Counted from the first letter of the stretch, positions 16,397-32,963 are shown. The stretch is 64,000 nucleotides of DNA from Candidatus Borrarchaeum weybense (GCA_019057385.1 JAHQJS010000004.1:1234539-1298538), one strand, 5' to 3'. Notes: generated by a model from the letters alone, not told the origin. Made by a program: numbers and translations.

Positions 16397-16404
16397 TCAC
16401 TATA

Positions 16405-17836
16405 GTTACTACTTTCGTAGAAAAATATTAAACTTCTTCCATACTAACCACAGGAACAAGTGGAAAGTAGTTAGAGGACTGGGGACCATATACTCCCAGG
16501 GATAGCCCGCGATCTCGTATGTTGCATGCGGCGTTATAGTCGGCGTCACCCTTATAACCGCAAGCTGGACATACGAATTTTTCATCTCGACGGATACCCC
16601 TGCTTCCACACTTGTGACAGACTTGACTCGACCAGTATGGGTACACCTCTATCAGGAAAACACGGTTTTCCTCGCAGAGCAACTCCAATTTGGTACAAGC
16701 ATGACGATAAGCCCAGTGTGAGAGCAGTCGGTTAGTGTAACGATTTCTTCGCTTCTTTTTATATTTTCGCGCTTTCTTACTTCGTCCTTTCTTCACATCT
16801 CGTAAGCGTTCGATCACTAGCACTCTTATTCTCGTGAAATCTATCTTCTTCAACTCACTATTGATGTGTTCTTTAATTATTAGGTGGCTTTTTTTCCTTC
16901 TGTAAAACCGCTCTATTTCCTGTTTCAATGTTCCTCCAACGATTTGACCATCAGATATCACTGCTAGTTTGCGAAAGCCCAGGTCCAGACCTACCATCTC
17001 TCCCAATTTTCTTATTGGGGGCAGTTGCTTCTCGAAGAAGACATCAAGGAAAAAGCCTTGTTTGGTTCTTCGTAGCCTACAGGACTTCAATAACTCCCAA
17101 CCCTTATTATAAAAAGAGTTAAAGTGATGATGTCGTTTGGTTGGCAGATAAATGGGTCTGCCACCTAAAATAGAGATTTTGATCCAGAGGTCAAAGGTGT
17201 TGTTGCCTTTTTTAATTTGCGCAAAGCGTTGGTCCAGTTCAAGTGTGGCTTTACAAATGACTGGTTTGGTTTTTTTGGTACGTTTACGCTGAGACTTGAC
17301 ATTCTGGAGTGCCTGTTTGGCGGCACATTGCTTGTATCGTTCTGTCAGTGATGTCCTTATGTGCAGGTAATATTTTTTAGGGACAAATGAGCCTTCGAAT
17401 ATATTATGATTCCAGAGGGTGTTGATGCATTTCTGCATAAAACTGAGATATTCATCAATTAAGTTATTCAGTATACTTTGTTTAAGTTTAGTCACATAGT
17501 TTAAGCTAAGGGTGGCCCGCCTAATCACGATATTCTCAAATCCTTTCGTATCTCGATATTAAACTATTAGTTACTAAGACACGTACTTAAGAAGAGTATT
17601 AGTCTTTATGATGCGGCTTTACAGAGTTAGTATATACAATCACCTTTTTTTAAGAACAGACTCCCCTTTGTATAAGTAAAATATCAAAAAAGAAAACCGC
17701 TTTCAGCGTTATGAAGTTAGGCAAATTGAGAGGAAACCTGATTGTATGATTACTTCTGATATAACCTCATTAAAACAAATTATGGCGATGTGTTTACGCG
17801 TTTTCTATGATTTCTATATTTTTACCTAAATCTCTT
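16405..17836 (-). mobile_element. Non-autonomous tnpB element 1 (IS607/IS200-605 superfamily, no transposase)
   Basis: Bounded by direct repeat TCACTATA at 16397-16404 and 17837-17844; removing 1440 bp restores a 166-aa ORF; TAGAAA-type subterminal repeats at both ends. Confidence 0.88.
16428..17528 (-). CDS. tnpB: RNA-guided endonuclease TnpB (366 aa, IS607-type)
   Basis: RuvC-I GLDLG, RuvC-II VIERL, Zn finger CHKC..CPAC, RuvC-III DADYNAACNI. Confidence 0.93.
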   Translation of the reverse strand: MIRRATLSLNYVTKLKQSILNNLIDEYLSFMQKCINTLWNHNIFEGSFVPKKYYLHIRTSLTERYKQCAAKQALQNVKSQRKRTKKTKPVICKATLELDQRFAQIKKGNNTFDLWIKISILGGRPIYLPTKRHHHFNSFYNKGWELLKSCRLRRTKQGFFLDVFFEKQLPPIRKLGEMVGLDLGFRKLAVISDGQIVGGTLKQEIERFYRRKKSHLIIKEHINSELKKIDFTRIRVLVIERLRDVKKGRSKKARKYKKKRRNRYTNRLLSHWAYRHACTKLELLCEENRVFLIEVYPYWSSQVCHKCGSRGIRRDEKFVCPACGYKGDADYNAACNIRDRGLSLGVYGPQSSNYFPLVPVVSMEEV

Positions 17837-17904
17837 TCACTATACATTTTAATTAGTTCAATTAAGTCGTGTTTCGAAAAATCCTTGAAGTCTGCTATTT
17901 TCAT
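17837..17904 (-). pseudogene. DUF6125-like gene, 5' part (MKIADFKDFSKHDLIELIKMYS)
   Basis: ATG at 17904 behind AGGTGA; continues in frame into 16396 once the element is removed. Confidence 0.8.
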
Positions 17905-17982
17905 AAGCTCACCTAATTTCGCCTCTTACTTGTTTCAGAACTTCAGATAGTACCAAAAAACGTAGATGAAGAGTAAAATAAT

Positions 17983-18390
17983 TCAAAAATTAAATCTGAC
18001 GGATAATATGTCTTTTATTTTAGTGATAAAAACTTCAGCATCATTTATAGCGCTTCTTGCGTCATCTTCTGATATAAAAGAGACTATTCCGTAATCCGCG
18101 CTTTCTCTAAATGAAAGTAATTTATTTAGAATTCTACCAAACTTTTCTTCTAAGAGGCCTTCTTTAATAACCCGGATTCCAAAAACAACTTGGAGACCTT
18201 TGTGTGTTCTTGTATCTTCTCCTAAAAGATATAAAAGTGCTTTTGAAGCATGAAAAACACTATAGTAGGCTCGACTGATCGCATCCTCGTAAAATTTATT
18301 TTTAAAGAGAAGCTGAGCTGCAGAAATTGCTTTATCTGATCGCTCTATATACTCTTTGGCAATCTTGAACGTGTTTTCTTTTTCACTCAT
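17983..18390 (-). CDS. HEPN domain protein (MNT-associated)
   Basis: AISRAYYSVFHASKALL, THKG, RESADY; true start ATG 18390. Confidence 0.88.
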   Translation of the reverse strand: MSEKENTFKIAKEYIERSDKAISAAQLLFKNKFYEDAISRAYYSVFHASKALLYLLGEDTRTHKGLQVVFGIRVIKEGLLEEKFGRILNKLLSFRESADYGIVSFISEDDARSAINDAEVFITKIKDILSVRFNF

Positions 18391-18791
18391 AATTACCACC
18401 TCAAGGAGACCCCCCAACATGTTGGGGGGAGGAATTGAGGTTGGGCGTTGCTCACACTACCCTTTCTGCGGAGACAGGGTTTGGTGTACCCAACCTCAGG
18501 TGGTGTGTTAATGACGGGTACTCGCAAGTCCCGCCGCTCCCCACACCAAGGGAGTAGGTTCTCTTCGCCAAAGTTATCAGTCAGTACTATACGATGATCA
18601 CTGAGAGTTTCCTCTCTGTTTAAACCACCGTTTACAGAGCAAAGGACTAGAGAAGCATCCTTTGGTGTGTTCTTGAACTCTCCTGATAACGTAGATACCG
18701 CCATAGACTATATGACCTCTCTTAGGCTAATCAACCAATTACTCTTGCTCCTCACGGAACAAGCCCTCTATTTTTTTGGAGGGTGATTGAC
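18391..18791 (-). mobile_element. Protein-less IscB-type (HEARO/omegaRNA) IS200/IS605 MITE, 401 bp
   Basis: Minus strand starts GTCAATCACCC..GGGCTTG..GTTGATTAG and ends AATTCCTCCCCCCAACATGTTGGGGGGTCTCCTTGAGG..; removal gives CGA-TTA-TGA with ATGA overlap of MNT stop and HEPN start. Confidence 0.87.
18520..18791 (-). ncRNA. IscB omegaRNA / HEARO-like RNA scaffold
   Basis: Ordered hallmark blocks CTACGTT, ACACC..GGATGCTTCTCTAGTCC..GCTCTG, TAAACAG..CAGTG, AACTTTGGCGAAGAGAAC; 3' boundary approximate. Confidence 0.8.
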
Positions 18792-19117
18792 AATCGAATG
18801 CCTTCCTTTAGAATGTTCTTAATTATAGGATCTCCTTTCTTATGACGATATTCTTCTTTGGAGAGAAAAACTAAAGAGACAGGCACAGAGTACTTAAGAT
18901 ATATTTCCGAAAGTTCATTTTGAAGAGCGTCCCTTTTATTGTTATCTCCTACAATTAGCAAATCAAGATCACTGTCTGGACGGTAATTACCAGTTGCAAA
19001 TGAACCATAAATAATTGCCAAGTCAATTGATTCTTCATTGTTCTTCAGGATTTTTTTCAGAAGATCAATTATTTCTTTTTCGTATAAATATAACACTCTG
19101 TTGACCTCATAAATCAC
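18752..19117 (-). CDS. Minimal nucleotidyltransferase (MNT); last 12 aa contributed by the MITE
   Basis: YGSFATGNYRPDSDLD (GS-x10-DxD) and ILKEGIRL end typical of MNTs. Confidence 0.88.
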   Translation of the reverse strand: MIYEVNRVLYLYEKEIIDLLKKILKNNEESIDLAIIYGSFATGNYRPDSDLDLLIVGDNNKRDALQNELSEIYLKYSVPVSLVFLSKEEYRHKKGDPIIKNILKEGIRLSITLQKNRGLVP

Positions 19118-19182
19118 AATGTTTTAATAAACAAAATAAAAAAAGTGAGATGACTTATTAATATTTTTCAGTTCCAGTGATC

Positions 19183-20292
19183 TTATCTATACAGATCGTC
19201 AAGGTCATCTCGGTTACTTTGAAATCTTTGTTCATCAAGATCTATTTCAACATTTCTAAATTCTTGAACTTGCATTGTGCTTCTATCTGTCTCGGGAAGC
19301 GCTGATTTTGCAACAATGTAAAACTGACATAACTTTTCTTTGTGCATGAGAGTTATCCCACTCCACTTTCCATCCTCTGTTCCGAATCGTATCACAGATC
19401 CAAGCCCTGCACCTTGTTTTTCCTCTTCAAAGGACATCTTTGCTTCTGCGAGAGCATCTGATACTTTTTTCCAGTAGTCTTCATTGCTTTTCAAAACGTC
19501 TTTAGATTCTTCTTTATCCATCCTTAAAATTGCTTCCATTATAAAGCCGTTCAAGGTCTCATTTCTGACTTCTTTCCAAGCTTTTTTATTCCCATAGAAC
19601 TCTAGCGCATTTAATTGCCCGTTAATGAATACGGCAACACCGCACTGTTTTTCTACATCTTCAAAATGAAGAGTATATTTTTCAACACGCTCTTTTTGGT
19701 CACTGGCTAATTTATTATAGGAACGTGATACGTTTTGATCTGTCGTTTGTCCAAATACTGCCATTTGTGCTTCAATTCCGCCCCAGATTGAACCTTGTGA
19801 ATCTACTTCCTCCTTCATGGCGTTAGACATGATAGACGGGTTCAGGCGGATCTTTGCTGATTTGAATTTACGGTGTTCTGTTCCTTTTGGTGCAATTTCA
19901 GTAGAATTTTCAAGTTCAAATGACCATCTTCCTGCTTCCACGCATCTTGAAGGAATTGGAATTGGTTTGCCTGTCTGAGTTGGCGGAACAAGCAATGGTT
20001 GGTAAATAACTCGATCCTGCTTGCCACCCGAGATTGTGTGCCCGAAGGGTATCAAAATCGGAATTTTCGATGAATTAACGACTTCCAACTCGCTCACGCT
20101 TGCCGATTCTTGTTCACTAATATGGCTTGCGTTTTGTAATTCGGCTTCCTTTATAGTCATGAACTCTGCTTCATCGCCTTCTAAAATAAGCGGGATTATA
20201 GTCATGTTCTTGTAGCTTTGTAAATTTCCAAATCTTATTATTTTGTTTATATCTCCTTCAAAGATATTTTTTAAATAATCTAAATGCTTCAG
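19183..20292 (-). CDS. ARPP-1 / DUF6569-like domain protein
   Basis: SVSELEVVN, GGKQDR, CVEAGRW, SQGSIW and GVAVFING blocks; frame open upstream of Met20205 to a CTG/ATA (start uncertain). Confidence 0.7.
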   Translation of the reverse strand: MKHLDYLKNIFEGDINKIIRFGNLQSYKNMTIIPLILEGDEAEFMTIKEAELQNASHISEQESASVSELEVVNSSKIPILIPFGHTISGGKQDRVIYQPLLVPPTQTGKPIPIPSRCVEAGRWSFELENSTEIAPKGTEHRKFKSAKIRLNPSIMSNAMKEEVDSQGSIWGGIEAQMAVFGQTTDQNVSRSYNKLASDQKERVEKYTLHFEDVEKQCGVAVFINGQLNALEFYGNKKAWKEVRNETLNGFIMEAILRMDKEESKDVLKSNEDYWKKVSDALAEAKMSFEEEKQGAGLGSVIRFGTEDGKWSGITLMHKEKLCQFYIVAKSALPETDRSTMQVQEFRNVEIDLDEQRFQSNRDDLDDLYR

Positions 20293-20298
20293 TCCTAT

Positions 20299-20727
20299 TC
20301 AATCCTCCTTTTTGGGTTTTTTGAGTTTAGTTTCCTCAAGGGGTTCAATGTTATCGTTCAAGATTTCTAATGCACGATTACCGTTAGTGGTTAGTGCAAA
20401 ACCAAATTCAAGGTCTTTACTTCCATTTTTATATTCCTTAATATTTCGCCAACCTCTATATTTCGGACTAGCTAATTCTTCAAATTCTACGTGCTCTCTA
20501 TGTTGTGTTATCAATTTCTGGGTTTTTAATCTCTTCAACTTATTTGAAATGGTTGATTTTGGAACAGGCGTAGGAGGCGTGTCATCATCACTCTCTGATA
20601 GTAAATATTGTAGCTCATTTATTCCTTTAGGCTCAGAAAGAGATGTGATGATTTTTTGCTCACGAAGTGCTTCAAGCAATTGTTTTGGTGATAGTTTCTT
20701 CTTTTCTTTCTCATTTTCTTTACCCAT
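20299..20727 (-). CDS. Winged-helix DNA-binding protein
   Basis: PKSTISNKLKRLKTQKLI recognition helix and FALTTNG wing. Confidence 0.65.
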   Translation of the reverse strand: MGKENEKEKKKLSPKQLLEALREQKIITSLSEPKGINELQYLLSESDDDTPPTPVPKSTISNKLKRLKTQKLITQHREHVEFEELASPKYRGWRNIKEYKNGSKDLEFGFALTTNGNRALEILNDNIEPLEETKLKKPKKED

Positions 20728-20748
20728 TAAATCACCCTTTTGGGACTA

Positions 20749-20771
20749 ATAGTTCTATTTTTTCGAACTAT
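20749..20771. promoter_or_regulatory. Candidate operator upstream of the wHTH gene
   Basis: ATAGTTC-N9-GAACTAT inverted repeat between a TATA-like GTTTATAAAC (~20796-20805) and the start codon. Confidence 0.45.
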
Positions 20772-21147
20772 CTATCCCATATAGTGAAATAATAGTTTAT
20801 AAACCTTTGTACGGATTCGATTAACTTCGAGTTAATTTCTTGTAGTTAATGCTCCATTCATTAGAAAAGCATTGAAAAAGAGTTCCCGCTTATAAAAAGC
20901 ATACAAAAGAAGCCAATTAAAGAATATCGTAAAGAAATACTGACGGTTAATTAAGAAACACTTTTTTAACCATAGTTGTTATCAAAGAGAGAACGATAAA
21001 TGCATTTTTGCTTTTGTGGACATTTTTCCATTTAGATATACCATAATGAACGATTATTAAGCCACAATATTTATATTATAAATCTATCTATGAAATAGTG
21101 TAAATATTTCCGTTTACGGATATTGTTCAATATGATTTGAGAAGGAG

Positions 21148-21924
21148 ATGAACATGAAATTCTCCGAAACTTTAACGGATAAGGATGCCAGAATAGTTAT
21201 CGGAGAGCTTACACTAAGAGAACTAGAGCAACTTTATTCCCAAAGGGAATGGAAACAGACCCTAAGCCCTAAAATCGTGACCACAATTCTTAAAGAAATT
21301 CTCAAAGAGGCGACTCTTGAAGATATTGAAATAAGAGAAGAAACTGAAAATAATGAACGGTATGCAAAACTGCTGCAATTTTTTGGAGATATTTTAAAGG
21401 ACTATGTATGTATCAACGGTAGCAGTATTTCTCCGATGTTAACAAAGGAAGAATGTGATGCTGAGGTAGAACACCTAAATCAAGTTGCTAGAGCACATCA
21501 TCTGTCTTTTCAACTCGCTTACGGGATGAAACATAAAATAGGAGAATGTATAAACAAAGAACTTGGTGTAATTGACGAAACCTACAGTAAATCGTGCAAA
21601 GCAAGGGAACAGGTAGAATGTATAGATTTTGACATTATTGTGAAAGAAATTAAGCCAAAATTACATGAAAACGTCCTAAAATTAGTAGAAAGATATCATC
21701 CGATTCTCCTTGAAGAAAAACAGAGTTTAATCGAAAATACTACTGATGAACAGCTTGACAGAATTTTAGAACTTTATGTTAAAAATGCAAAAAATTCTAT
21801 CGAATATGGATATCTCAAGCATGATCCTCAGAAGATCAAAGACTACATTTATAATGCTGTCTTAGAAAGTATAGAATGGTGGTTAAAAAACGTTTTTGAA
21901 GACCAACTTATAGATTTCATTTAG
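21148..21924 (+). CDS. Hypothetical helical acidic protein
   Basis: 258-aa ORF behind AAGGAG; no recognisable motif. Confidence 0.7.
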   Translation: MNMKFSETLTDKDARIVIGELTLRELEQLYSQREWKQTLSPKIVTTILKEILKEATLEDIEIREETENNERYAKLLQFFGDILKDYVCINGSSISPMLTKEECDAEVEHLNQVARAHHLSFQLAYGMKHKIGECINKELGVIDETYSKSCKAREQVECIDFDIIVKEIKPKLHENVLKLVERYHPILLEEKQSLIENTTDEQLDRILELYVKNAKNSIEYGYLKHDPQKIKDYIYNAVLESIEWWLKNVFEDQLIDFI

Positions 21925-22167
21925 ATAATCCCCTTTTTCATTGATAAGGGACGAGTTTAATCCACGGAATTTCCTGTAATAGAAAACCTCCTCTTTTTAG
22001 GTATTTAATTGTATATTAGGGAAGTAATAGGGAAGTAATAAAACCATCCAGTAGAAGTTCCACCAATTTTTGGCGCCATAAATATTTCTCTTAGAGTGAA
22101 AGCATATACTCCACGGTTTTGTGGTATACGTCAGTTTTGAAGCAGAAGTTTAGGTAACTCTTACATT

Positions 22168-22267
22168 TGTATCGATCAGCTTAGATACATATCGAAAATT
22201 TTAAATATGACATTGTCATTATCATACCCAAGTTCATCAATAGTTTTCCTGAATCGAATTGATGAAC
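22168..22267. promoter_or_regulatory. Candidate ArsR operators around the acr3 promoter
   Basis: TGTATC-N10-GATACA (22168-22189) and GTTCATCAAT-N16-ATTGATGAAC (22232-22267) flank TATA-like TTTTAAATA. Confidence 0.5.
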
Positions 22268-22352
22268 AAATCTTTAACGGGGGCGTGTGATCCTCTTATG
22301 ATATGAAATTAACAGAAAATTACATAGAGGTATTAAAGCAGGTGTAAACGAA

Positions 22353-23462
22353 ATGAATACACAACAAATACAAGGTCAAGTTGAAGTAAAGGAAGAAATG
22401 GGTCGATCAATTAATTATTTTGAAAGATATCTTACCGTCTGGGTAGGTCTTTGCATTGTTGCTGGCATTGTGCTTTCTCAAATAATTCCAGCGATAAGTA
22501 CAACCATTGATTCGTGGCAATTTGCTAGTATTAATATTCCGATTGGCATTTGCCTGTTCTTAATGATGTATCCTGCAATGCTCAATCTCCAAACTTCAGA
22601 GATTAAAAAACTAGGTAAAAATCCCAAACCGATAATTCTAACTCTGATTTCAAATTGGATTATTGCCCCTTTCGTTGGATTTCTAATGGCAAGGATATTT
22701 CTCGCTGGATTTGAGCAATTAATAGTAGCTGTAATCTTACTAGCGAGTTCACCTTGTACTGCTATGGTCTTAGTTTGGGGCTGGATGTGTGAGGGAAACC
22801 AAGAACAAAACGTGGTCAATACTAGCCTAAATACGGTCACTATAATGATCCTATTTGTTCCAATAGTTGCGCTTCTCACAGGAATCCAAAACATCCCAAT
22901 TAATTACTTGCTACTTATTCTGTCAGTGGTCTTGTTTATTGGATTACCTATGAGTCTGGGAATCATTAGCAAAAGAGCAATTGTTTCCTTAAAGGGATTA
23001 GAGTGGTTCGATAATATTTACCGCCCTTTTGTTGGAAAAGTATCTATTGTTGCACTATTAACTACTTTGGTGGTGCTGTTTTCTTTAAATGGAAATGTAT
23101 TGCTGCTTAATCCTGACCTTCTGGTCTTAGTGTCAATACCTTTGCTGCTAGGCTTTGCTATAGTCGTTGGTTTCAATACTTTGATTACGAAAATATTCAG
23201 TCTTAATTACAGGGAAGCAATTATCACGGTAATTATTGGATCTTCAAGTCACTTTGAAATTGCGATTGCTACGGCTGTTACAATGTATGGTGTCGGTTCA
23301 CTTGCCGCCTTAGGAACTACAATGGGATTATTCTGGGAAGTTCCCATTATGCTCGGTTTAGTTTATTTAGGAAAATATCTTGGCAAAAGAGGGTTCTGGA
23401 AATGGCCGGAATCAGCATTAGATGCATGTGAAATTGTTGATGATCCCTCTGTTACATTATAG
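22353..23462 (+). CDS. acr3: ACR3 family arsenite efflux transporter
   Basis: FERYLTVWV, MMYP, PCTAMVLVW, SSHFEIAIATA, EVP. Confidence 0.93.
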   Translation: MNTQQIQGQVEVKEEMGRSINYFERYLTVWVGLCIVAGIVLSQIIPAISTTIDSWQFASINIPIGICLFLMMYPAMLNLQTSEIKKLGKNPKPIILTLISNWIIAPFVGFLMARIFLAGFEQLIVAVILLASSPCTAMVLVWGWMCEGNQEQNVVNTSLNTVTIMILFVPIVALLTGIQNIPINYLLLILSVVLFIGLPMSLGIISKRAIVSLKGLEWFDNIYRPFVGKVSIVALLTTLVVLFSLNGNVLLLNPDLLVLVSIPLLLGFAIVVGFNTLITKIFSLNYREAIITVIIGSSSHFEIAIATAVTMYGVGSLAALGTTMGLFWEVPIMLGLVYLGKYLGKRGFWKWPESALDACEIVDDPSVTL

Positions 23463-23580
23463 GTTCGACAATTCCCTAACTTCATCCCTTTTTTATTTTA
23501 TCTACTTTAATAGAAAAATGAACGATTATATCTTGAAGCAAATAAAGTTTATACATCTCAAATGAAAGAAGTGAGTTAAC

Positions 23581-23994
23581 ATGCCGATAGAAAGTGAAAG
23601 ATTAGAAAGACTTATTGACTCGGGAGAATGCCCTTCAAAAAGTTCCGAAGTTTATGCAAAAGAGCTGAAAGCGTTAAATGATCAATTAGATAAAGAGGTT
23701 CCCGAAAAACTACTCCAATTGTTTAATGCATTATCGGATCATAAAAGATGGAAAATTGTTAAACTGTTACTCAATCGCAAATTGTGCGTCTGTGAGTTTA
23801 CTGAGGTGCTAGAGGTGACACAATCGACTGTGAGCCATCATCTGAGTATTTTAGAGAGCGCAGGACTAATAAGAGGCTTTAAGAAAGGAAAATGGACGTT
23901 TTATGAGGTAAAAAAACCAGATCACGTTGCCAAACTTTTTAAATTTGCTGAAGAATTAGTTAATTCCAAGGTTAGTGTTCTACCAGCCATTTAG
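23581..23994 (+). CDS. arsR: ArsR/SmtB metalloregulator
   Basis: FNALSD..R..I, LCVCE metal site, QSTVSHHL, GKWTFY. Confidence 0.9.
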   Translation: MPIESERLERLIDSGECPSKSSEVYAKELKALNDQLDKEVPEKLLQLFNALSDHKRWKIVKLLLNRKLCVCEFTEVLEVTQSTVSHHLSILESAGLIRGFKKGKWTFYEVKKPDHVAKLFKFAEELVNSKVSVLPAI

Positions 23995-23999
23995 GAAAT

Positions 24000-24584: not shown

Positions 24585-24691
24585 AATTTTTCTCCTTAAT
24601 TTTTAATTTTCTTTGCTGGGGAATTAGTTTAACCACTATTTCAATTAGAATTGTAGTAAAAAAAACTGAAGCGAAGAACTTCCAGTTTGAA

Positions 24692-25495
24692 TTAAAAGAA
24701 ATAATTCTCTTCTGTTCCCAGCATATATTCGAGGGTTGAATGGTAGACGTCAACAAACTGATCAAAAGCATCTATATTCGGATCCAGAACTGGATTGAGT
24801 TCAACTATGACATAATGAGATAAATTGTTCTTTTCAAATGTTATTAACTTCTTTTGTGCAACATCCAAAATTAGGCGTCCTTCAGGAACTCTAAGTTCTC
24901 CTGACTTAATTGCGTCCACGAAAAGGCGATATTTGTCACTGTGGAGACCTCCCAGACAAACTTTAGCGTTCTTAACTCCTGAAGTCGTCTTCACGGTAAA
25001 CGTTTTTTTCACCAAATTCCCCAATAATCTCTTAGGGATTAAGTGATTGTTTTGTACCTTTGTTAAGACTTCGTCTGCCATTTTTTGGCCTCTTGCTAAT
25101 TCTATGACTCGAATTTCCTTTGTGATCTTCTCCTCATCAGCTTTTGCAGTAGGATCAATAACATCAGGGCTTATAATATCAACAAGCGGGGTTGGTTTGT
25201 CTGGCCTAAGTTCAGTGCTATCAAAAATCACTCCGGAAATTGTCTTAACCTCTGGAATTGGTCGACCACCTACGGACATATTTCCATACATTACTGCAGG
25301 TCCTATAAGACAAGACCGAACTAATGTTTCTCCAGTCTCTTCATTGGTAGATATAAGGTTCCATACTTGTTTCGATGTAGCTAGGATATATCCTTCAAGT
25401 TGAAAGGATCCCATTTGACTCTCATAATCTGGAATATAAAGTTCAAGTATCCAGAAAAGAGTTGGAAATTCGAGGACATCTTGAATTTCAAACAC
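24692..25495 (-). CDS. Hypothetical protein
   Basis: 267-aa ORF with normal protein composition, no recognised motif. Confidence 0.7.
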   Translation of the reverse strand: MFEIQDVLEFPTLFWILELYIPDYESQMGSFQLEGYILATSKQVWNLISTNEETGETLVRSCLIGPAVMYGNMSVGGRPIPEVKTISGVIFDSTELRPDKPTPLVDIISPDVIDPTAKADEEKITKEIRVIELARGQKMADEVLTKVQNNHLIPKRLLGNLVKKTFTVKTTSGVKNAKVCLGGLHSDKYRLFVDAIKSGELRVPEGRLILDVAQKKLITFEKNNLSHYVIVELNPVLDPNIDAFDQFVDVYHSTLEYMLGTEENYFF

Positions 25496-25817
25496 ACCCC
25501 AGTAGCGCTCTAAATTGACGATAATTTCAGAAACTTTCTTTAAAATACATATAATTTGCTATCTGTATAACAATATTATACATTTGGAAAGTTTATCTCT
25601 CATATTTTTTTTATGAAATCATGAATTTAAAGTTTCTCAGAGATTTATACACAATTCTATTTCTATATGATATTGAGGTCTTCTATCTTTATTTTGTACA
25701 TGGATACAGAAACGAAAAAATTAAAGGACATTAGATCAATATATGAACAATGCGCAAAGATATCTTCCTCTAATAAGGGGAAATAAAAAATAGGGGTAAG
25801 TAGTTAAAGATAGTCTT

Positions 25818-27134
25818 CTATTTTTGTCTTTTCTTACGCAGAATCATCGTTACTAGCGTAATAAGGGGGATAAGTCCAAGAAGCAAAGTTCCAAAACAGA
25901 ATCCTGTACCGCCATCTCCAGCATCTCCAGTACCACCGCCTTCACCAGGGGACGTATCAATTGAAGATTCACCGCTTACTATTTCAGCATTTGACCAGTC
26001 GTACGCAAAAACATCGACGAAAAATCCTGCTACGCTTGTGTCAAAAATAATGACGCCTGCCTCTCTATTTTCATTCGCCGCTTCGTAGGACCAATTGATG
26101 CTTGAGATCAAAACAATTGAGTTATCTACGATAACGCCTTTGTTGTGACAATATTCAAAAACACTGCTAGAATATGCCACTTCGATTCCTTCAGATGCCA
26201 TATAACTTGCCGAATCTGCCGCACCAGATGGTTGTTTATCAATGATTACTTTAACGGTGACGCCACGATCCACAGCAGCTTCGAGTTCATCCAAAAACTC
26301 ATCTGAGCTGCCATCCCATTCAGTTTTAATATAAGCTTGTTGGACATAAATAGTGTCTGTGGCGGACTGCAAAAGCGATTTTATCGCAGAGACATCGTTA
26401 TCTGGTGAAACGATAGTTTGAATGGTCATGCTTCCTGTATATTTCTTTGAACTGAAAGACTTTGAATAACTGCCAGAAGACACACTTTCTGAAAAGGTTT
26501 TTTCATGATCAGCATCTTCAAAGTATGGTGTAGCTATACCCATATCGTTGTTAAAAACTTGTAGAAAGTAGTTGACGACATCACTGTTTTTGATCATCAC
26601 TCCCCATTCGCGATTACCGTAACTGGGATCTTTTGGAACGCTCGTCTTCGCCCAATTCGCACTCTGGACTAGTACAACTTCTTGATCTATGATAATGTAC
26701 TTCGCATGAGTGAAGTCATACGTATTTGAAGACTCAAACAAATTTACGTTTGTAGCACCTGCGTCATCTGCCGCTTGTGATAGATAATAGAGTGCGCCTC
26801 TTGTATTTGAGGTTTCAAATCCTGATGCATGACGGTATGAAACGATCACGTTAATTATAATGGAGGGATTTTCGTTCATTTTATCGACTAGAGCGTTTAG
26901 GAGGAATGTATTAGAAATGGCATAAATGCATAGGTCAATTTCTTCGTCTGCGCTATCCAACGCATCTATCGTTACGCCGTAAATTGAATCCGGGGATGTA
27001 TAGCATGTTACCTCCATATTACCAGAATGCTTTGTGGCAGAAAAGTTAGAAGCTGTAGCTAATTGTGTGAAAATAACTCCAGTGAATAGTAGCGTTAGTG
27101 TTAGTGTTGTTACAAATAGATATTTCCTTCGCAT
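25818..27134 (-). CDS. Secreted, C-terminally anchored phospholipase D / nuclease family protein
   Basis: Signal peptide, two HKD motifs (HAKYIIID, HNKGVIVD), NRE motifs, Gly-rich linker, C-terminal TM and basic tail. Confidence 0.9.
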   Translation of the reverse strand: MRRKYLFVTTLTLTLLFTGVIFTQLATASNFSATKHSGNMEVTCYTSPDSIYGVTIDALDSADEEIDLCIYAISNTFLLNALVDKMNENPSIIINVIVSYRHASGFETSNTRGALYYLSQAADDAGATNVNLFESSNTYDFTHAKYIIIDQEVVLVQSANWAKTSVPKDPSYGNREWGVMIKNSDVVNYFLQVFNNDMGIATPYFEDADHEKTFSESVSSGSYSKSFSSKKYTGSMTIQTIVSPDNDVSAIKSLLQSATDTIYVQQAYIKTEWDGSSDEFLDELEAAVDRGVTVKVIIDKQPSGAADSASYMASEGIEVAYSSSVFEYCHNKGVIVDNSIVLISSINWSYEAANENREAGVIIFDTSVAGFFVDVFAYDWSNAEIVSGESSIDTSPGEGGGTGDAGDGGTGFCFGTLLLGLIPLITLVTMILRKKRQK

Positions 27135-27424
27135 TAATTTTCACCTTTTTTAAGACTTAAATATTATGTATGAGCTGTGAATATTTAAGTCTGTATCAAT
27201 TGTTCTGAACGAATTTGCTATAAAAGACTGATGGAGGCAGAAATGTTAAGGCTAGAATGATAAATGGGTTAGCTAATAATTATCTGATCTTTCAAACGAC
27301 GCACCTTAAATCAGATAAACGACTGGATTATCATTTTCAATTAATTAAAGAAGATAAAGTATTGATCTATTGTTATTGTAATCTAATGCGTGCCTCAAAG
27401 GGTTCGCAGTTTTGAAAATGACTC

Positions 27425-28264
27425 TTATGCAAAATACCGTAGCACAAGAAGGCCTGCCAAAAGAATATACAAACCTGCAATAAAATATCGCAAGTTCGTA
27501 GCAGAGACTCTGTGAGAGAATCGTGCGCCCATTTGTGCACCTATCACTAAACTCGGTGCGATAAACACAAGATATACATAATTTACATGCCCCAGTGACG
27601 CATGAGTAAGAAACGCCGCGAAGGCGGTTATAGTAACCATAAGGCTTGAGGTTCCCGTGGCTAAATTCACAGGAAGTCCACCAGCAATTAATACAGGGAC
27701 TTTCAAAACACCGCCTGAAATGCCGAAAAACCCAGCAGCGAAACCGGCTAAAAAACTTGCGGGGAGTACGAGAGCTAAATTTACAATATATTCAACATTC
27801 TTATCATCGCTATTTATTAGAGTTCTTCTGACGTAAAAAAAACGGTGGTGTCCAGCCGTAATATGTTGTCCCGCGTCACTATTGATTTCGATTTCACAAG
27901 AGCTGTTGGCTTTCAAAACAATGACTGAATTGATAAGCAGGAGGAGTGCGAAAAGAATTTCCAAAAAGACCGTCGATATAAGAGTTGTTGTATACGCACC
28001 AAGAATTGCGCCTGGAACAGTTACTGATTCTAAAAGCAGCCCAAGTTTCCAGTCGACCCTCCTCTGTCTAAAATATTCAATAAAAGATGAAATTCCTGTG
28101 AACATTACTGCGCTGATACTAATTCCTACGGCTTGACGTGCATCAAAACCAAGAAATAGCAGAGTAGGCACCAATAAGATACCTCCACCAATACCAAGCA
28201 TAGCTGAAATGAAGCCGATTATTAGAGTGGTTATAACTAATAGCACATAGATAAGTAATCCCAT
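27425..28264 (-). CDS. TSUP (TauE/SafE) family transporter
   Basis: Duplicated GIGGG..VP / GISGG..VP, ATGTS. Confidence 0.9.
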   Translation of the reverse strand: MGLLIYVLLVITTLIIGFISAMLGIGGGILLVPTLLFLGFDARQAVGISISAVMFTGISSFIEYFRQRRVDWKLGLLLESVTVPGAILGAYTTTLISTVFLEILFALLLLINSVIVLKANSSCEIEINSDAGQHITAGHHRFFYVRRTLINSDDKNVEYIVNLALVLPASFLAGFAAGFFGISGGVLKVPVLIAGGLPVNLATGTSSLMVTITAFAAFLTHASLGHVNYVYLVFIAPSLVIGAQMGARFSHRVSATNLRYFIAGLYILLAGLLVLRYFA

Positions 28265-28341
28265 AATTTATCCCAGATTTTAATCAATACGCTGTAAGTC
28301 ATAATAATAGTTTTTATAGTTGTGGTATCTATATGGATTAC

Positions 28342-28440
28342 AATGCGAGGAATACCTCGCATTATGCGGAGAACACGTTCTTGTGCATGAGACCGAACCT
28401 GGGAGGTCCCACGCTTTCGACGATGGGGACGGATGACAGG
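28342..28440 (+). ncRNA. Candidate structured leader or small RNA (three hairpins)
   Basis: GC-rich island ~25 nt downstream of TTTTATA; stems AATGCGAGG/CCTCGCATT, ATGCG-GAGAAC/GTTCTT-G-TGCAT, CCTG..GTCCC/GGGAC..CAGG. Confidence 0.5.
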
Positions 28441-28464
28441 CAAAAGGAAGAAAAAGGTGAAAAA

Positions 28465-28941
28465 ATGAAAGAATTAAAATACGAATTTTCAACGCAAGAA
28501 GAAATTAACAAGGGTTTAAATTGTCTAAAGGACGTAACTGAAGTTACATCTGAAGAAATGGAGGAAACTGGTAGCCTCAAAATTAAATCTTCAGATAGAT
28601 CGCTAATAATGATAGTTCATTCTATATTTTCTAAAGAGCAAGAACTTACAATAGAAGTATATGCCACTACTACGACTGAAGATGCAGAGAATGTAGTGAA
28701 GGAGTGTTTTGGAACACCAAAGTCAGAAAGAAAACTAGCACCCTCAATATTGGAAGTGTCAAAAATCATTATCCAGTCTACTAGACAAAACCTAGATCTG
28801 TTGTCTGAAGATGTATGTGATATATTTGGACTGAAGGCAAAGCATTTTGAAAAATATAAAAAGATGATTATTCAGTCTGCCTCGATGCCTGGAGCGCTAC
28901 CTGAGGTAAAACAGGCCGCAGATAAAATAGAATCCTTATAA
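28465..28941 (+). CDS. Hypothetical protein
   Basis: Start ATG 28465 behind AGGTGA; the ORF-finder extension to 28333 runs through the structured RNA. Confidence 0.7.
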   Translation: MKELKYEFSTQEEINKGLNCLKDVTEVTSEEMEETGSLKIKSSDRSLIMIVHSIFSKEQELTIEVYATTTTEDAENVVKECFGTPKSERKLAPSILEVSKIIIQSTRQNLDLLSEDVCDIFGLKAKHFEKYKKMIIQSASMPGALPEVKQAADKIESL

Positions 28942-28994
28942 ATACCTCAAAAACTATCATATTCAACAAATTGCAAATACTTGGAGTTGAATTA

Positions 28995-29342
28995 ATGACG
29001 GAAAGGGAAAATAGTCTCGTTGTAGTTTGGAGTAGCGGAGATCGCGAAGTTGCACTTAAAATGGTCTTCATGTACACTTTGAATTCAAAATTGAAAGATT
29101 GGTGGGAAGATGTTCGCTTTATTGTTTGGGGTCCATCAGCAAAGTTATTGAGTGTTGATGTCGAACTACAAGAATACTTACAAAAAATGAGAGATGCTGG
29201 AGTGATATTAGAAGCATGCAAAAAGTGTTCAGACCTTTTTGGAGTTTCAGCAAAACTCGAAGACCTAGGCATCGATGTAAAATATATGGGAGTACCGTTA
29301 ACGACATATTTGAAGGAAGGTCGACACATAATCACTTTTTAA
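28995..29342 (+). CDS. DsrE-like protein
   Basis: WGPSAKL, ACKKC, YMGVPLT pattern. Confidence 0.8.
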   Translation: MTERENSLVVVWSSGDREVALKMVFMYTLNSKLKDWWEDVRFIVWGPSAKLLSVDVELQEYLQKMRDAGVILEACKKCSDLFGVSAKLEDLGIDVKYMGVPLTTYLKEGRHIITF

Positions 29343-29433
29343 TTAATCTATCATTCTTAAAGAGTTAGAACTCAAATAGAATGTTGCTCAATAGAGTAAA
29401 GTAGAATCATCTTTCATCAAAGGTATTTATTCT

Positions 29434-30414
29434 TTAATATTGTATGTATCGAGTTCTGAAGTTTGTAGCTTTACGTCTGACGAGCAGTCGTTTATTTTTA
29501 AAGACGAATGTATCTAAATCTCTTACAACTAGAATTGTCCTCACATGATTTTTCAATTCTAGAATAGCCTTTGTGGATTCTTTTGTTTGAAAGGGTATTG
29601 ATTCTAAAGTGAGTCTCTCAGCAGCCTGTTTTAATATCGCTTCTTCAGTCGTTTCAATGTCTTTAGGAGTCTTTTTAAATAATGATCTGTGACCAAATCG
29701 CATATCGGCAATATGTGTCAATGCAAGATGGTTTGAATTGCTTCTTAGAGCATCAATCACAGCAGTAGATGGTGTAGAATGCATACTCTTTTGCGCCCAT
29801 CGTTTATTTTTGTTAGGAAAGGTACTTTCATGAAAGAAAATACACGAGTTTTGTCCTAATTTCTGAATCGAAGGAAAACCCGCAATGGTATCTACTGGGA
29901 ATGTGATTTTTAAATTAGGATTTTTGAAGGCGTAACAAAGAGTAGGTGTTCTATGTGCTGCTCTACATGCCCAAACTTCGGTATTTTGAATTTCATCTAT
30001 TTTCTTAATTTCATCTGATTGAAAAAATAGTTGGTTTTTTTCATCGTCACTTAGAAATTCTATAAACCGTGGAATCCTTCCTAAAAAACAAGCTCTGATA
30101 AAAAGTCTTAAGAAACGTTCTTTCTCAGGCGGATAAAACAATTTCACCTTTGGATTATCAGAAGCTTTTTTAATCTTACGAAGAACCCAACCAAAATATA
30201 CGGGGTTGAGGTGATCTAAATGTGTATGAGTGATATAGATGCGGCGGATTTTTGAAAAATCGTCTTTTCTAAGAGAAAGTAAGTTTTTGGATCCACAATC
30301 AATTAATGCAATAGATTGATCGTCATCAGAATATAGTCTTACGACCATTGCGCTTTTTGCTCTATATTGAAGTATGTTCGCTGAACCGCTTCCCATCACC
30401 TGCACTGAAAGCAT
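29434..30414 (-). CDS. Metallo-beta-lactamase fold hydrolase, RNase Z-like
   Basis: DCG, THTHLDH, AH, DT, HESTF, HST, TH motifs. Confidence 0.8.
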   Translation of the reverse strand: MLSVQVMGSGSANILQYRAKSAMVVRLYSDDDQSIALIDCGSKNLLSLRKDDFSKIRRIYITHTHLDHLNPVYFGWVLRKIKKASDNPKVKLFYPPEKERFLRLFIRACFLGRIPRFIEFLSDDEKNQLFFQSDEIKKIDEIQNTEVWACRAAHRTPTLCYAFKNPNLKITFPVDTIAGFPSIQKLGQNSCIFFHESTFPNKNKRWAQKSMHSTPSTAVIDALRSNSNHLALTHIADMRFGHRSLFKKTPKDIETTEEAILKQAAERLTLESIPFQTKESTKAILELKNHVRTILVVRDLDTFVFKNKRLLVRRKATNFRTRYIQY

Positions 30415-30463
30415 TAGAACGCCTCGTGAAATATTTTAGATTAACTATAAGCTATTTGCCTGA

Positions 30464-30505
30464 TTATTCCAAGATTTCATAGGGACTTCTTGTTGGCCAA
30501 TCAGG
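30464..30505 (-). pseudogene. Displaced 3' end of the cupin gene (PDWPTRSPYEILE*)
   Basis: In frame with 32395..32760 after removal of tnpB element 2. Confidence 0.8.
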
Positions 30506-30513
30506 TACCAACC

Positions 30514-32394
30514 GTTCCTTTCATTATAGACATCTCTTAACAACTCTTTGCAGTTATTAACACTGTCTATCCACCCAACGTCTGAACAAGACGGTGAATG
30601 GAGTCCCCGCTAGGACGGTTGAGCGGGATACCCGTCGCCATATAGGGGACAGGCTTTGCCTGTTTTAAACTAAAGCGCTTCTTACGCTTTTCTTGATACA
30701 CTCGATAGATGTTCACCGCCGCGATGTAATCGCGGTCGGCTAAATATGAACACGCCCCACAGTAAAAGAATCGGCCGCGTTTTAACACCTGGTGGGCACG
30801 GGGGTCACTGATCTTCGCCCCTTTGGCACCACAGCGCGGACAAAAACTCGATGTCCAGCGCGGGTTTACCCGCACCAGCTTGATACCGTAACGCTGTGCC
30901 TTGTACTTGAGAATTTCGTAAAAGGCCCCCCGTAGCCAATTGGAGAGTTTACGTGAGATTTTACGCAGGTGTTTCGGCGGCTGGTAGTTGCGCAAGTCCT
31001 CCAGCACGATGGTCTTGCACCCCCATGTAAGGGCAGTCTCCAGCAGCTGGTTGCTCGCTAAATGCAGTATCTCCTCGCGATAGCGGTTCAGTTTACGGTA
31101 CAGCCGCTCCAGTTCCTCCCTACGTTTACCCTGCCCGTACCAGTTGACGGGATAGCGATCTAACTTGCGTTGCAGCCGGGAGATATGGTGGTAGAGAGCG
31201 TCTATTTTTTGCAACACGGTGGTAGAGGGCGACCAGAAAATGGGAGGGCTCAACTGCGACCCAGCTTCACAGATTACCGAGGTCGTCAGTTTGATCACCC
31301 CCAGATCGGTGGCCAGCACACGGTTCGCCCGTAACGGCGGATAGTGTGTCTGAGGCTGCGTCTGGTGTTGGGGGTTTGGGTCAAAAGACCATGCACATTC
31401 CAGAAAGGGGAGTGTCAAGCCGCCTTTCAGTGTGATATAGCGTAAGTTAGGGGGACACAATTTACTAGAGGGTGAGATCACCCGTGCTTGAAGTTTGGCC
31501 GGTATCGACAGGGTAAACTCCTGCCACCCCCAGTGGGAGCGTTTCGTAGGCTGTGGGCGGCAGGGGAGTTTCAGTCTGATGGCGATGATGCTTGGATCGG
31601 CTTGGTGCGGCTGCCAGTCGTACTGAAGGGCTTGCCCCTCATCGGGGCTGTAGGGCAGGCTAAACGAGTGAAGTCGTGGTTTCACGACTGCGGAGTAAGG
31701 AAACCGCAACAACAGGCTTAAATCCAAGCCGAGTTGATAATAATAACGCCTAAACATGCGTAAGGTCTGACGGATCAGCGCCCAGCGATAAAATATGCCT
31801 TCAAAATTCGCTAAGGTGAGGGCTACGGTGCGCACTAAATTATCCAGTTTGCCCTCTACACCCGTGAGTTGAACGATCCGTAACACATCATAATAACACT
31901 GTTTGCGGATGGCTTGCGAGCGAAGGATGCGTCCCACCTGTTCGGCGATACACCGCCTGATGCGAGAGGGCAGGTACACCGCCGTTCCCTGGCTAGTGGT
32001 TAAGTTGACGCGCCGTTCGTTGATGACTTTGTAGGCCTTTTTTGTGCGGGCGGAGTCCAGCGTATCGATCCAATGATCGGACCATAATTCGGCTAAGAGT
32101 TTTTGAGCAGCGTGCATCACAATATCTTGGAGCATATCCAGTTCGAGGCGTAAGGTGGCGTCTTGTGGGAGTTTGAGTGGATACGTGTGCGTCAGCGAGG
32201 TCATAGGTGTGAAGTTCTCCTGCAGTTAAGGTGATATGGTCGTTCAGGGAGTTACCGGCACTTGAGTATAGAGAAACTAGTTATAAAAAGACAACCTTTT
32301 TTTAAGTAGTAACAAGGAGGTAGTCATTTGACGCCTCAAGCCGTGAAATAAATGTCTATAAAACGATACATGTGTTAATAGATGTGTCAACTTT
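30514..32394 (-). mobile_element. Non-autonomous tnpB element 2 (IS607-like ends, no transposase)
   Basis: Direct repeat TACCAACC at 30506-30513 and 32395-32402; subterminal motifs TTATAGACAT, ACATCT(A/C)TTAACA and TATTAACAC inverted between ends; visibly GC-richer than host. Confidence 0.9.
30567..32204 (-). CDS. tnpB: Large TnpB / Cas12f-like RNA-guided endonuclease (545 aa)
   Basis: RuvC-I ATDLG, RuvC-II VLEDL, VNPRWTSSFCPRC..CGAC, RuvC-III DRDYIAAVNI; ~300-aa N-terminal region. Confidence 0.9.
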   Translation of the reverse strand: MTSLTHTYPLKLPQDATLRLELDMLQDIVMHAAQKLLAELWSDHWIDTLDSARTKKAYKVINERRVNLTTSQGTAVYLPSRIRRCIAEQVGRILRSQAIRKQCYYDVLRIVQLTGVEGKLDNLVRTVALTLANFEGIFYRWALIRQTLRMFRRYYYQLGLDLSLLLRFPYSAVVKPRLHSFSLPYSPDEGQALQYDWQPHQADPSIIAIRLKLPCRPQPTKRSHWGWQEFTLSIPAKLQARVISPSSKLCPPNLRYITLKGGLTLPFLECAWSFDPNPQHQTQPQTHYPPLRANRVLATDLGVIKLTTSVICEAGSQLSPPIFWSPSTTVLQKIDALYHHISRLQRKLDRYPVNWYGQGKRREELERLYRKLNRYREEILHLASNQLLETALTWGCKTIVLEDLRNYQPPKHLRKISRKLSNWLRGAFYEILKYKAQRYGIKLVRVNPRWTSSFCPRCGAKGAKISDPRAHQVLKRGRFFYCGACSYLADRDYIAAVNIYRVYQEKRKKRFSLKQAKPVPYMATGIPLNRPSGDSIHRLVQTLGG

Positions 32395-32760
32395 TACCAA
32401 CCCCACAAACATTATGCCTCCAACAACTAAGAGCCACAACAACTCGTTGCTCGTATTATATACTCTGTGATCCGTGTTTTCTTTATTATATATCGCATCT
32501 CCAGCCTCAAATTCATAATTGACTCCTTCGGATTCTATTGTTCCCCTTCCTTGAAGAACATAATATACTTCTTCACAATTATGTCTATGTAACGGAGAAT
32601 GAGAATTCGGTTCAATTTCAACAATGCCCATAATGAGTGTTTTAGTTTCTACACCAGTTTCAGGGTATAGTACTTTAAGATCCTTTACTCCTGGACGCGA
32701 CTCCATTGGAGCACCTGGGATATATTCAGATTTCTTCACAACAACCTTACTAGAAGGCAT
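32356..32760 (-). CDS. Cupin domain protein, C-terminus replaced by element sequence
   Basis: HRHNCEEVYYVLQGRG and H..YN cupin motifs; native tail lies at 30464..30505. Confidence 0.85.
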   Translation of the reverse strand: MPSSKVVVKKSEYIPGAPMESRPGVKDLKVLYPETGVETKTLIMGIVEIEPNSHSPLHRHNCEEVYYVLQGRGTIESEGVNYEFEAGDAIYNKENTDHRVYNTSNELLWLLVVGGIMFVGLVKVDTSINTCIVL

Positions 32761-32963
32761 GTCAACTCACCAAGTTTTCCTAATATAGACCTATCAAATT
32801 TATAATTATCGCGAGAGCAATCTGTGAACTATAAATCTCTAGAAATTATCTATCAAACGATCTCCTTATGTGACGAAAGTAACTTTAATATATTTGCTCG
32901 TACTTAAAGAGATCCTACTAAATAATTGTTTCAGAAGTTACTTATATCAAATAAAATGGGGAG

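Follow-up and report, generated by a model that had tools for sequence, protein, structure and literature searches.

Two transposase-less tnpB inserts in a Borrarchaeum genome and a probable IS607 origin of their 8-bp flanking repeats

In a 64,000-nucleotide stretch of the Candidatus Borrarchaeum weybense genome (the whole stretch analysed, hereafter the window), two inserts with very different tnpB genes lie inside protein-coding genes between 8-bp direct repeats. How did they move, and what do the repeats represent? A sequence-only reading of this DNA had proposed an undescribed mode of mobilisation, in which one shared trans-acting enzyme either uses an 8-bp overlap or makes 8-bp target-site duplications (TSDs). 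It named IS607 TnpA selecting junction-like targets as another option, and regarded the sense orientation of the inserts as compatible with removal at the RNA level. The IS607 family combines a serine-recombinase transposase, TnpA, with the RNA-guided nuclease TnpB. Our analysis indicates that both inserts are very probably IS607 elements without tnpA, and that each 8-mer consists of a core followed by a target match to the element's left end.

The two inserts and their empty sites

The features of element 1 are:
16405..17841, minus strand: element 1 body, a probable non-autonomous IS607-family element without tnpA
17841, minus strand: start of the left end, which begins AGTGAAAG
16405, minus strand: finish of the right end, ...GTAGTAAC
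17837..17844, minus strand: left 8-mer TATAGTGA, TAT core (17844-17842) plus the element's first 5 left-end nt
16397..16404, minus strand: right 8-mer TATAGTGA, TAT core (16404-16402) followed by 5 target nt
16428..17528, minus strand: tnpB, 366 aa, GTG start
17529..17841, minus strand: non-coding left end, 313 nt
17792-17810: subterminal inverted motif in the left end
17543-17565: 23-nt echo of the right end, inside the left end
15964..16404 (3' part) and 17842-17904 (5' part), minus strand: interrupted DUF6125 gene

Those of element 2 are:
30514..32399, minus strand: element 2 body, a probable non-autonomous IS607-family element without tnpA
32399, minus strand: start of the left end, which begins TGGTAAAAGTTGAC
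30514, minus strand: finish of the right end, ...ATGAAAGGAAC
32395..32402, minus strand: left 8-mer GGTTGGTA, GGT core (32402-32400) plus the left end's first 5 nt
30506..30513, minus strand: right 8-mer GGTTGGTA, GGT core (30513-30511) followed by 5 target nt
30567..32204, minus strand: tnpB, 545 aa
30511..30670, minus strand: predicted right-end RNA scaffold, omega-RNA-like, overlapping the 3' end of tnpB
32294..32306, minus strand: second copy of a 13-mer, CTTAAAAAAAGGT, with a TATA-like box after it and tnpB 90 nt downstream
30464..30513 (3' tail) and 32400-32760 (5' part), minus strand: interrupted cupin (Cupin_2) gene

The descriptive observations of the sequence-only reading were confirmed. 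The flanking repeats are exact, reading TCACTATA on the plus strand at 16397-16404 and 17837-17844 for element 1 and TACCAACC on the plus strand at 30506-30513 and 32395-32402 for element 2, and the empty sites hold one copy. On the tnpB strand both inserts begin with AA and end with AAC; the AAC is kept in both families, and the starting AA falls within an AAAG that only the element 1 family conserves. Neither element holds a transposase ORF or remnant, and the left-end spacers gave no tnpA remnants at E <= 10. Both inserts do lie in sense orientation within a CDS, DUF6125 for element 1 and Cupin_2 for element 2, and excising the insert together with one repeat restores the host ORF at both loci. 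In the sister species G308 (93% identity) both sites are empty with a single 8-mer each (ATGTATAGCGACTTATTC at the element 1 site and GTTGGTTTGGTACCTGATTGG at the element 2 site), and G305 has the same empty element 1 site with a single 8-mer copy. Both insertions are present in two independent assemblies. Public-run contigs (four DNA runs, Logan) covering 15900-33000 were of low depth and contained no empty-site or circle joints, and are uninformative on their absence.

Each element has a single core in common with its flank, TAT for element 1 and GGT for element 2. A G at 17845 is the TAM-like base at the left junction of element 1, and a G at 32403 makes the left flank of element 2 GGGT. 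Terminal inverted repeats reaching the ends are absent from both elements, and subterminal motifs occur at both ends, of the ATAGAA type in element 1 and the ATAGAC type in element 2.

The identical 13-mer that had been pointed out in both elements is indeed present at 17642-17654 and 32294-32306. There are three exact copies in the 4.18-Mb genome, and the window has four matches at <=1 mismatch, a number that window shuffles never reached. The 11-nt core of the 13-mer was absent in 85/85 of the relatives' loci searched, so neither element has the 13-mer as a conserved component, and we rejected it as a shared transposition signal. It may be a chance occurrence or a local promoter-like element.

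Relatives, ends and transposases

Both encoded proteins are TnpBs, with PF07282 matches at 59 and 66.6 bits and NF040570 matches at 96.2 bits (just below its 100-bit cut-off) and 114.6 bits. The RuvC residues D182, E240 and D330 of the element 1 protein fall in invariant alignment columns, as do D300, E402 and D492 of the element 2 protein. Against 400 genomes of the phylum, the element 1 TnpB matched its own genome alone at E <= 1e-40, and its relatives were drawn from metagenome contigs. In one of these relatives (L006) an IS607 transposase adjoins tnpB upstream (NF033518, 125.6 bits against a cut-off of 110). IS607-type tnpA was matched by tblastn in >15 loci of element 1 relatives, and the resolvase ORFs of two loci (L101 and L106) agree with IS607 tnpA in this lineage. 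For element 2, the relative L067, whose 26,410-bp contig is also that of G306, a genome within the genus, has a full-length 187-aa TnpA (199 bits) overlapping a 76%-identical tnpB, and IS607 tnpA is also found in the relatives L070, L071, L072 and L076. Because tnpA is present in relatives of both lineages, we class the window copies as non-autonomous derivatives.

No IS607 tnpA was found in the 8-contig assembly of this genome. The sole resolvase-domain ORF (C6:664611-665000) was rejected as a candidate, being not IS607-type (22.9 bits against the cut-off of 110) and having no adjoining tnpB. A point against our explanation is that the inserts would depend on two different TnpAs acting in trans, neither of which was found in the assembly.

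The ends of the inserts are those of their families. A right end ...AAC followed by TAT is kept in ~30 loci of element 1 relatives, and ...GGAAC followed by GGT in ~25 element 2-family copies. Element 1 relatives that likewise lack tnpA keep G|TAT-N4-AAAG at the left end. Every copy carries its core, TAT or GGT, without variation at both the right end and the left junction, and the base before the core in the left flank is always G in both families. The leading 3 nt of each 8-mer are thus fixed throughout the family and do not represent a free duplication. Two element 2-family copies at different sites have GGTCAAC in common, which indicates that an element brings along the 7 nt that follow GGT at its left end. 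These patterns do not fit IS200/IS605 with its Y1 transposase and free right flank, as the relatives have a serine TnpA and the first right-flank nucleotides are fixed, nor do they fit a TSD-forming transposon, as the flank identity runs from 3 to 10 bp with the leading 3 bp invariant and terminal inverted repeats are absent.

The inserts belong to two separate IS607 lineages common in Asgard archaea, where both window families are mostly found. The idea of one shared trans-acting enzyme was not upheld, as the cores (TAT and GGT) and the end motifs differ and the relatives' IS607-type tnpA genes are separate; judged from these sequences, the two elements appear not to be mobilised by one enzyme. 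The GC content of element 2 tnpB is 54% against 37% for the genome. We dropped this as a sign of recent transfer because tnpB GC is above the host flanks family-wide, in 12/12 loci checked, with an excess of 2-17 points, mostly 5-17.

An IS607 element leaves as a double-stranded circle, which a serine-recombinase TnpA integrates by strand exchange at a short core identical in the circle junction and the target. No target-site duplication is made, but the core stands at both junctions. In the mechanism that we propose for the two inserts, this core would be the shared TAT in element 1 and the shared GGT in element 2. The left flank, with G before the core (GTAT, GGGT), would hold the likely TAM of the cognate TnpB, and the right end has C in that place (ACTAT in element 1, ACGGT in element 2). 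The right end would encode the guide-RNA scaffold and the flank past the core would be the guide, in which case TnpB would cut the empty site. The guides are predicted at ~16401 down to 16386 for element 1, as placed by the published IS607 layout, and at ~30510 down to 30495 for element 2. For element 2 the predicted scaffold has four helices and then a single-stranded AATGAAAGGAACGGT at its end; of its 27 pairs, 8 have compensatory changes among 15 family members, and the scaffold region is kept in short derivative copies. The other 5 nt of each 8-mer would likewise not be duplicated: on the left they would be the element's first 5 nt and on the right a target that already matched, with integration favoured at targets whose sequence past the core is like the start of the element's left end. 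We infer that TnpA is supplied in trans to both elements, and we assign the crossover dinucleotide, the TAM and the guide on the same footing.

Target choice beyond the core

An exact search of the genome for 8-bp repeats flanking further copies of the families found none, and across 16 element 2-family and 13 element 1-family copies the identity beyond the invariant 3-nt core was 0-7 nt, mostly 0-2. The left ends of relatives were set by motif, because DNA homology between the left ends of distant relatives was too weak for BLAST; that of L016 was set by its repeat. With the window elements excluded, the summed identity run after the core in these 29 insertions was 31 against 13.4 expected (permutation p = 8e-5), in what is a small sample of 29 pairs with some relatives being kin. 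When L016 was also excluded, the summed run was 24 against 11.3 expected (p = 4.5e-4). L016 itself has a 10-bp repeat and an ORF is restored there, and repeats of 7 and 6 bp occur at L076 and L110. These results support reading the extra 5 nt of each 8-mer as a target that matches the start of the element's own left end, through a graded, element-specific bias. The option of IS607 TnpA selecting junction-like targets gains support from this match and from the IS607-type membership of both families.

The molecule behind the bias can be assigned in more than one way. In the more ordinary reading, each TnpA would recognise its own core-proximal sequence. Alternatively, target choice could be helped by homology, each base that matches between the DNA past the TAM and core and the opening of the left end favouring integration, and the boldest version of this, which we rate as distinctly improbable, is that a circle-derived guide RNA steers TnpB and thereby biases TnpA integration. 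As the right end abuts the left end in the circle, a guide RNA transcribed there would begin with left-end nucleotides, and TnpB carrying it might linger at TAM sites that offer a short seed match. If true, this RNA-based reading would describe a primitive form of RNA-assisted transposition.

It could also be argued that the core suffices for IS607 integration and that both window elements owe their extra 5 nt to coincidence, since most relatives have little extra identity and published IS607 and CboIStron insertion maps show no downstream preference (PMC6188088; bioRxiv 10.1101/2023.11.20.567912). We consider this unlikely, because 5 extra matches would arise by chance at ~0.0014 per element and ~2e-6 for both, and because the same graded excess is seen in independent insertions, with and without L016.

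TnpA might instead have had no part in integrating the circles, which could have entered through microhomology recombination of the host or through a tyrosine recombinase that depends on overlap and uses the 8-bp identity. Such a route would account for their arrival in a genome whose assembly has no cognate tnpA, and 7-10 bp of identity does occur at some junctions. We nevertheless find it very improbable, as the crossover is always exactly at the core of the right-end/left-end junction, which a host pathway would not select, and only 3-4 nt are common in most copies. Moreover, an assembly in 8 contigs may have missed a repeat copy with tnpA or a source outside the chromosome, and an autonomous element is present in the genome of the same genus.

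The new mode of the sequence-only reading, a trans-acting transposase that makes staggered cuts and true 8-bp TSDs for tnpB-only elements, draws on the exact 8-bp repeats at two unrelated elements, the empty alleles with one copy, and the genome without tnpA. It was not borne out and now seems highly implausible: the leading 3 nt of the repeat are invariant in all family copies, the identity in 29 other copies is variable, the left-end nucleotides after the core are inherited with the element, no terminal inverted repeats reach the ends, and autonomous relatives carry IS607 tnpA. The tabulation of flank repeats and orientation on which that reading had staked its proposal gave variable, short homology and one full-length copy (C6:738229-739896) antisense in a CDS. 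We also looked for a bias towards sense orientation; of the copies inside ORFs, ~5-6 are sense and 1-2 antisense, which is too few to call.

Removal of the elements from host mRNA, as in an IStron or another intron, is barely credible as the explanation of sense insertion, even with the window copies, L016, L020 and L076 in sense to the host ORF and with IS607-type IStrons in existence (bioRxiv 10.1101/2023.11.20.567912). No Rfam intron family matched in 15000-34000 at E <= 1, the sole hit being a HEARO RNA that lies outside the elements. In addition, the occupied alleles are cut short, element 2 has a left end of just 190 nt, the full-length antisense copy and many intergenic copies do not fit it, and splicing is not signalled by direct repeats.

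Relation to known systems

Published IS607 elements use GG as their core, make no TSD and have the first nucleotide of the right flank fixed (PMC6188088; PMC10711439; bioRxiv 10.1101/2023.11.20.567912), and IS607 has been described as nearly without target specificity past a dinucleotide. The inserts resemble members of the family such as H. pylori IS607, ISC1904, IS1535 and ISXfa1 in TnpB, in the right-end guide RNA (here predicted), in the same short core at the junctions and in the target, in the lack of a TSD and of terminal inverted repeats, and in their subterminal repeated motifs. In their autonomous relatives, tnpA, with MerR-type DNA-binding and serine catalytic domains, overlaps the start of tnpB. 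They differ in that the window copies have no tnpA, in that the element 1 lineage has a TAT core compared with GG in described members, and in the likeness of the target to the start of the left end past the core, which is not reported for IS607 (PMC6188088). This bias in target choice is the one result here that goes beyond the literature. If it holds, it constrains models of how a serine transposase captures target DNA, and it would account for tandem and nested copies.

In CboIStron, the IS607-type IStron of Clostridium botulinum, the target/TAM is TGGG while the right end has TCGG, and mini-elements without TnpA can be mobilised in trans, with TnpB aimed at the empty site (bioRxiv 10.1101/2023.11.20.567912). 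The same contrast of G in the target/TAM with C in the right end is seen here, as GGGT against CGGT and GTAT against CTAT. Unlike CboIStron, the window elements are in archaeal hosts and have no group I intron, so that there is no evidence of splicing. The Fanzor2/IS607 elements of eukaryotes and viruses descend from IS607 TnpB lineages, with Fanzor ancestors placed mainly in cyanobacterial IS607 TnpBs (PMC10711439); the window families are likewise IS607 and mostly from Asgard archaea. We believe that Asgard tnpB-only inserts between neat flanking repeats are very probably stripped-down IS607 elements, and that they call for no new mode of tnpB movement. The ends and cores given here, with the likely TAMs (GTAT, GGGT), should aid the annotation and mining of compact Asgard TnpBs.

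This genome also has five families, ~30 copies in all, of IS200/IS605-IS1341-type tnpB-only elements, which are like the two inserts in having TnpB and a right-end guide RNA (predicted for the inserts), in often having lost tnpA and in occurring also as short derivatives. They differ in that they end in GGTAGTTCAC, have hairpin left ends beside TTAC- or TTTAT-type flanks, and have nothing in common between the two flanks. One of these elements adjoins the single Y1 tnpA of the genome.

The two inserts and their host genes

The two tnpB inserts, element 1 (16405-17841, minus strand) and element 2 (30514-32399, minus strand), are each bounded by an 8-bp flank repeat.

tnpB genes and flank repeats of the two inserts (repeats read on the tnpB strand)
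16428-17528, minus strand: tnpB of element 1, 366 aa, matches TnpB/Cas12f nuclease domain
30567-32204, minus strand: tnpB of element 2, 545 aa, matches TnpB/Cas12f nuclease domain
17844-17837 and 16404-16397: flank repeat of element 1, TATAGTGA
32402-32395 and 30513-30506: flank repeat of element 2, GGTTGGTA

Deleting element 1 together with one repeat makes a DUF6125 gene whole again, and the same operation on element 2 restores a cupin gene, each host gene having the orientation of its tnpB. Both sites are empty in the sister species G308 (93% identity across the flanks), which reads ...AAAATGTATAGCGACTTATTC... at the element 1 site and ...GTTGGTTTGGTACCTGATTGG... at the element 2 site, with one copy of the 8-mer each, and the empty site of element 1 was confirmed in the further outgroup G305. 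As both insertions were also found in two other assemblies of this organism, they are not assembly artefacts. The restored ORFs, the empty sites, and the other assemblies show that the sequence-only reading was correct about the 8-bp repeats and the sense insertion inside coding sequences, and it was also right that neither element carries a transposase, with tnpA and any trace of it absent from both. At the target of element 1 (16396-16404), the sequence is TATAGCGAC in G308 and G305 but TATAGTGAT in the window's genome, and the C-to-T substitution by which the 8-mer becomes perfect is restricted to the insertion-bearing lineage.

Conserved ends and IS607 membership

In the window's own genome, the element 2 family has a second full-length member at C6:738229-739896, 78% identical, plus eight or more short derivatives that range from 61 to ~580 bp. 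In these derivatives, the left end and the final portion of the right-end RNA are retained.

Short derivatives of the element 2 family (genome G000; contig and position)
C6:83565-83926
C6:284193-284767
C8:190140-190347
C5 ~218257-218379
C5 ~370003
C3 ~90935-91064
C7 ~245134-245208
C6 ~71922-71982

In every copy of this family in the genome the right end is ...ATGAAAGGAAC followed by GGT, with flanks that diverge only beyond GGT, and the left end, wherever identifiable, has the form G-GGT-N7-[A/T]GTTRAY; the 8-bp repeat is absent from all of these other copies. Two copies at different sites carry the same 7 nt (GGTCAAC) after the GGT of the left end, so these bases belong to the element and move with it, and do not come from the target. 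Element 1 is a single copy in the genome, and the right end in ~30 of its metagenomic relatives is ...AAC followed by TAT, with left ends of the form G-TAT, 4 variable nt, and AAAG. The conserved ends of both families therefore divide each 8-mer into an invariant 3-nt core and 5 further nt. Subterminal motifs were found in the window elements, and the right end of the element 2 family has a conserved multi-helix RNA fold with 8 compensatory pairs. We considered high GC as a mark of the recent arrival of element 2 and rejected it, as tnpB lies 2-17 GC points (mostly 5-17) above host flanks at 12 of 12 loci of the family (L066-L081 and window 30567-32204), making the excess a family trait.

Many relatives of element 1 have an IS607-family transposase ORF directly upstream of tnpB. 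The ORF at locus L006 scores 125.6 bits (cut-off 110), tblastn matches this transposase at more than 15 loci, and called Resolvase genes are present at L101 and L106. For element 2, the relative L067 (tnpB 76% identical) encodes a full-length 187-aa TnpA (199 bits) overlapping the tnpB start, between the ends G-GGT-GTCCAAC-TGATAAC (left) and GGAAC-GGT (right). It shares one 26,410-bp contig, recorded as a Borrarchaeota (Asgard) MAG, with G306, a genome from the same genus as the window, and both TnpB families come mostly from Asgard archaea. Excised IS607 elements are double-stranded circles, which integrate through exchange by a serine recombinase at matching dinucleotides (PMC6188088); these elements make no target-site duplication, lack terminal inverted repeats, and have short repeated motifs within both ends (PMC6188088; PMC4058570). 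Their TAM, the motif flanking the TnpB target, overlaps the core, and the first right-flank nucleotide is fixed (PMC10711439). In CboIStron, the target and TAM read TGGG and the right end TCGG, so that the element is spared by its own nuclease (bioRxiv 10.1101/2023.11.20.567912); likewise, in both window families the base preceding the core is G on the left-flank side (GGGT, GTAT) and C within the right end (ACGGT, ACTAT). In contrast, the other tnpB families of the genome (~30 copies) are of IS605/IS1341 type, end in GGTAGTTCAC, and have two unrelated flanks.

Judged by sequence, both inserts are ordinary non-autonomous IS607-family derivatives, and the new mobilisation mode that had been proposed for them is not supported. 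RNA-level removal found no backing, as no intron family was detected. One enzyme common to both elements is not supported, as cores, end motifs, and TnpA lineages all differ, nor is a fixed 8-bp overlap or TSD, with identity lengths of 3 to 10 bp among copies. Sense orientation is not strict: the full copy at C6:738229-739896 lies antisense to a 207-codon ORF, close to the end of that ORF, and many copies lie between genes. The 13-mer common to both elements is real and rare (3 genome copies) but absent from relatives, so it is not a family feature. Contigs from four public DNA runs aligned to 15900-33000 were of low depth, so the lack of empty-site or circle joints among them is no sign of absence, and no RNA run was listed. 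IS607 tnpA was not found in the genome assembly (8 contigs); the transposase for the two recent insertions and the many short derivatives could have come from a copy since lost, from a repeat missing in the assembly, or from an extrachromosomal element.

Resemblance of targets to the left end

The further 5 nt of each 8-mer are the element's first bases in the left copy and target DNA in the right copy. In 29 other insertions (13 of the element 1 family and 16 of the element 2 family), a small sample in which left ends in relatives were assigned by motif, we measured how far the right flank agrees with the left-end start. Identity runs after the core were 0,0,1,1,0,0,2,7,1,1,1,2,0 in the element 1 family and 0,0,0,1,0,0,1,0,1,2,0,0,4,1,3,2 in the element 2 family. 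The repeat is 10 bp at L016, where its removal restores an ORF, 7 bp at L076, and 6 bp at L110. When right flanks were shuffled among elements inside each family, which preserves family-wide base preference, the summed run of 31 exceeded the 13.4 expected (p = 8e-5; window elements left out), and did so without L016 (24 vs 11.3, p = 4.5e-4). The joint chance of the extra match in both window elements is ~2e-6 under simple composition. Insertion in both families is thus biased, in a graded and element-specific way, towards targets similar to the core plus left-end start. The fallback suggestion of an IS607 TnpA choosing "junction-like targets" is therefore supported as a target bias, with TnpA or something else possibly reading the match. 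Published work on IS607 and CboIStron reports no such downstream preference (PMC6188088; PMC4058570; bioRxiv 10.1101/2023.11.20.567912), making the bias a modest new point of this analysis. In the Boocock-Rice model, the junction-bound tetramer has DNA-binding parts left free to hold the target, so a left-end-like bias would be allowed.

Nested and neighbouring features

Just upstream of the tnpB start of element 1 (17543-17590, minus strand), a right-end-like TAGTAAC and a degenerate core TAAT are followed by a left-end-like start AGTTTAAT and then by 23 nt that echo the right end; a head-to-tail tandem or nested insertion may have left this sequence as a scar. At L019 (~2210-2330), an element 1-type relative has two tandem right ends ~60 nt apart, each ...AACTAT, which fits a tiny derivative inserted at an existing junction. 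An autonomous element 1-type IS607 (Resolvase ORF and tnpB) lies in sense inside another tnpB gene at L106 (942-2600). Contigs from a mangrove metagenome of an unrelated study (run X5) carry the element 1 body (16400-17430) at ~99% identity without the DUF6125 flank or the left flank, so this copy may occupy another site or another host there. Element 2-family tnpB genes of 45-78% identity (L065, L078, and L079) occur on short contigs assigned to a Desulfobacterales MAG; the study that produced this MAG also yielded a Sifarchaeum MAG, and the assignment could be a binning error or the genes could have passed to a bacterium. A full-length HEARO RNA (the IscB guide RNA; RF02033, 132 bits) lies at 18554-18791 on the minus strand, flanked by a small ORF on one side and a HEPN ORF on the other, and no full-size iscB adjoins it; metagenome contig depth there is ~10x that of neighbouring DNA, and the element is therefore multi-copy.
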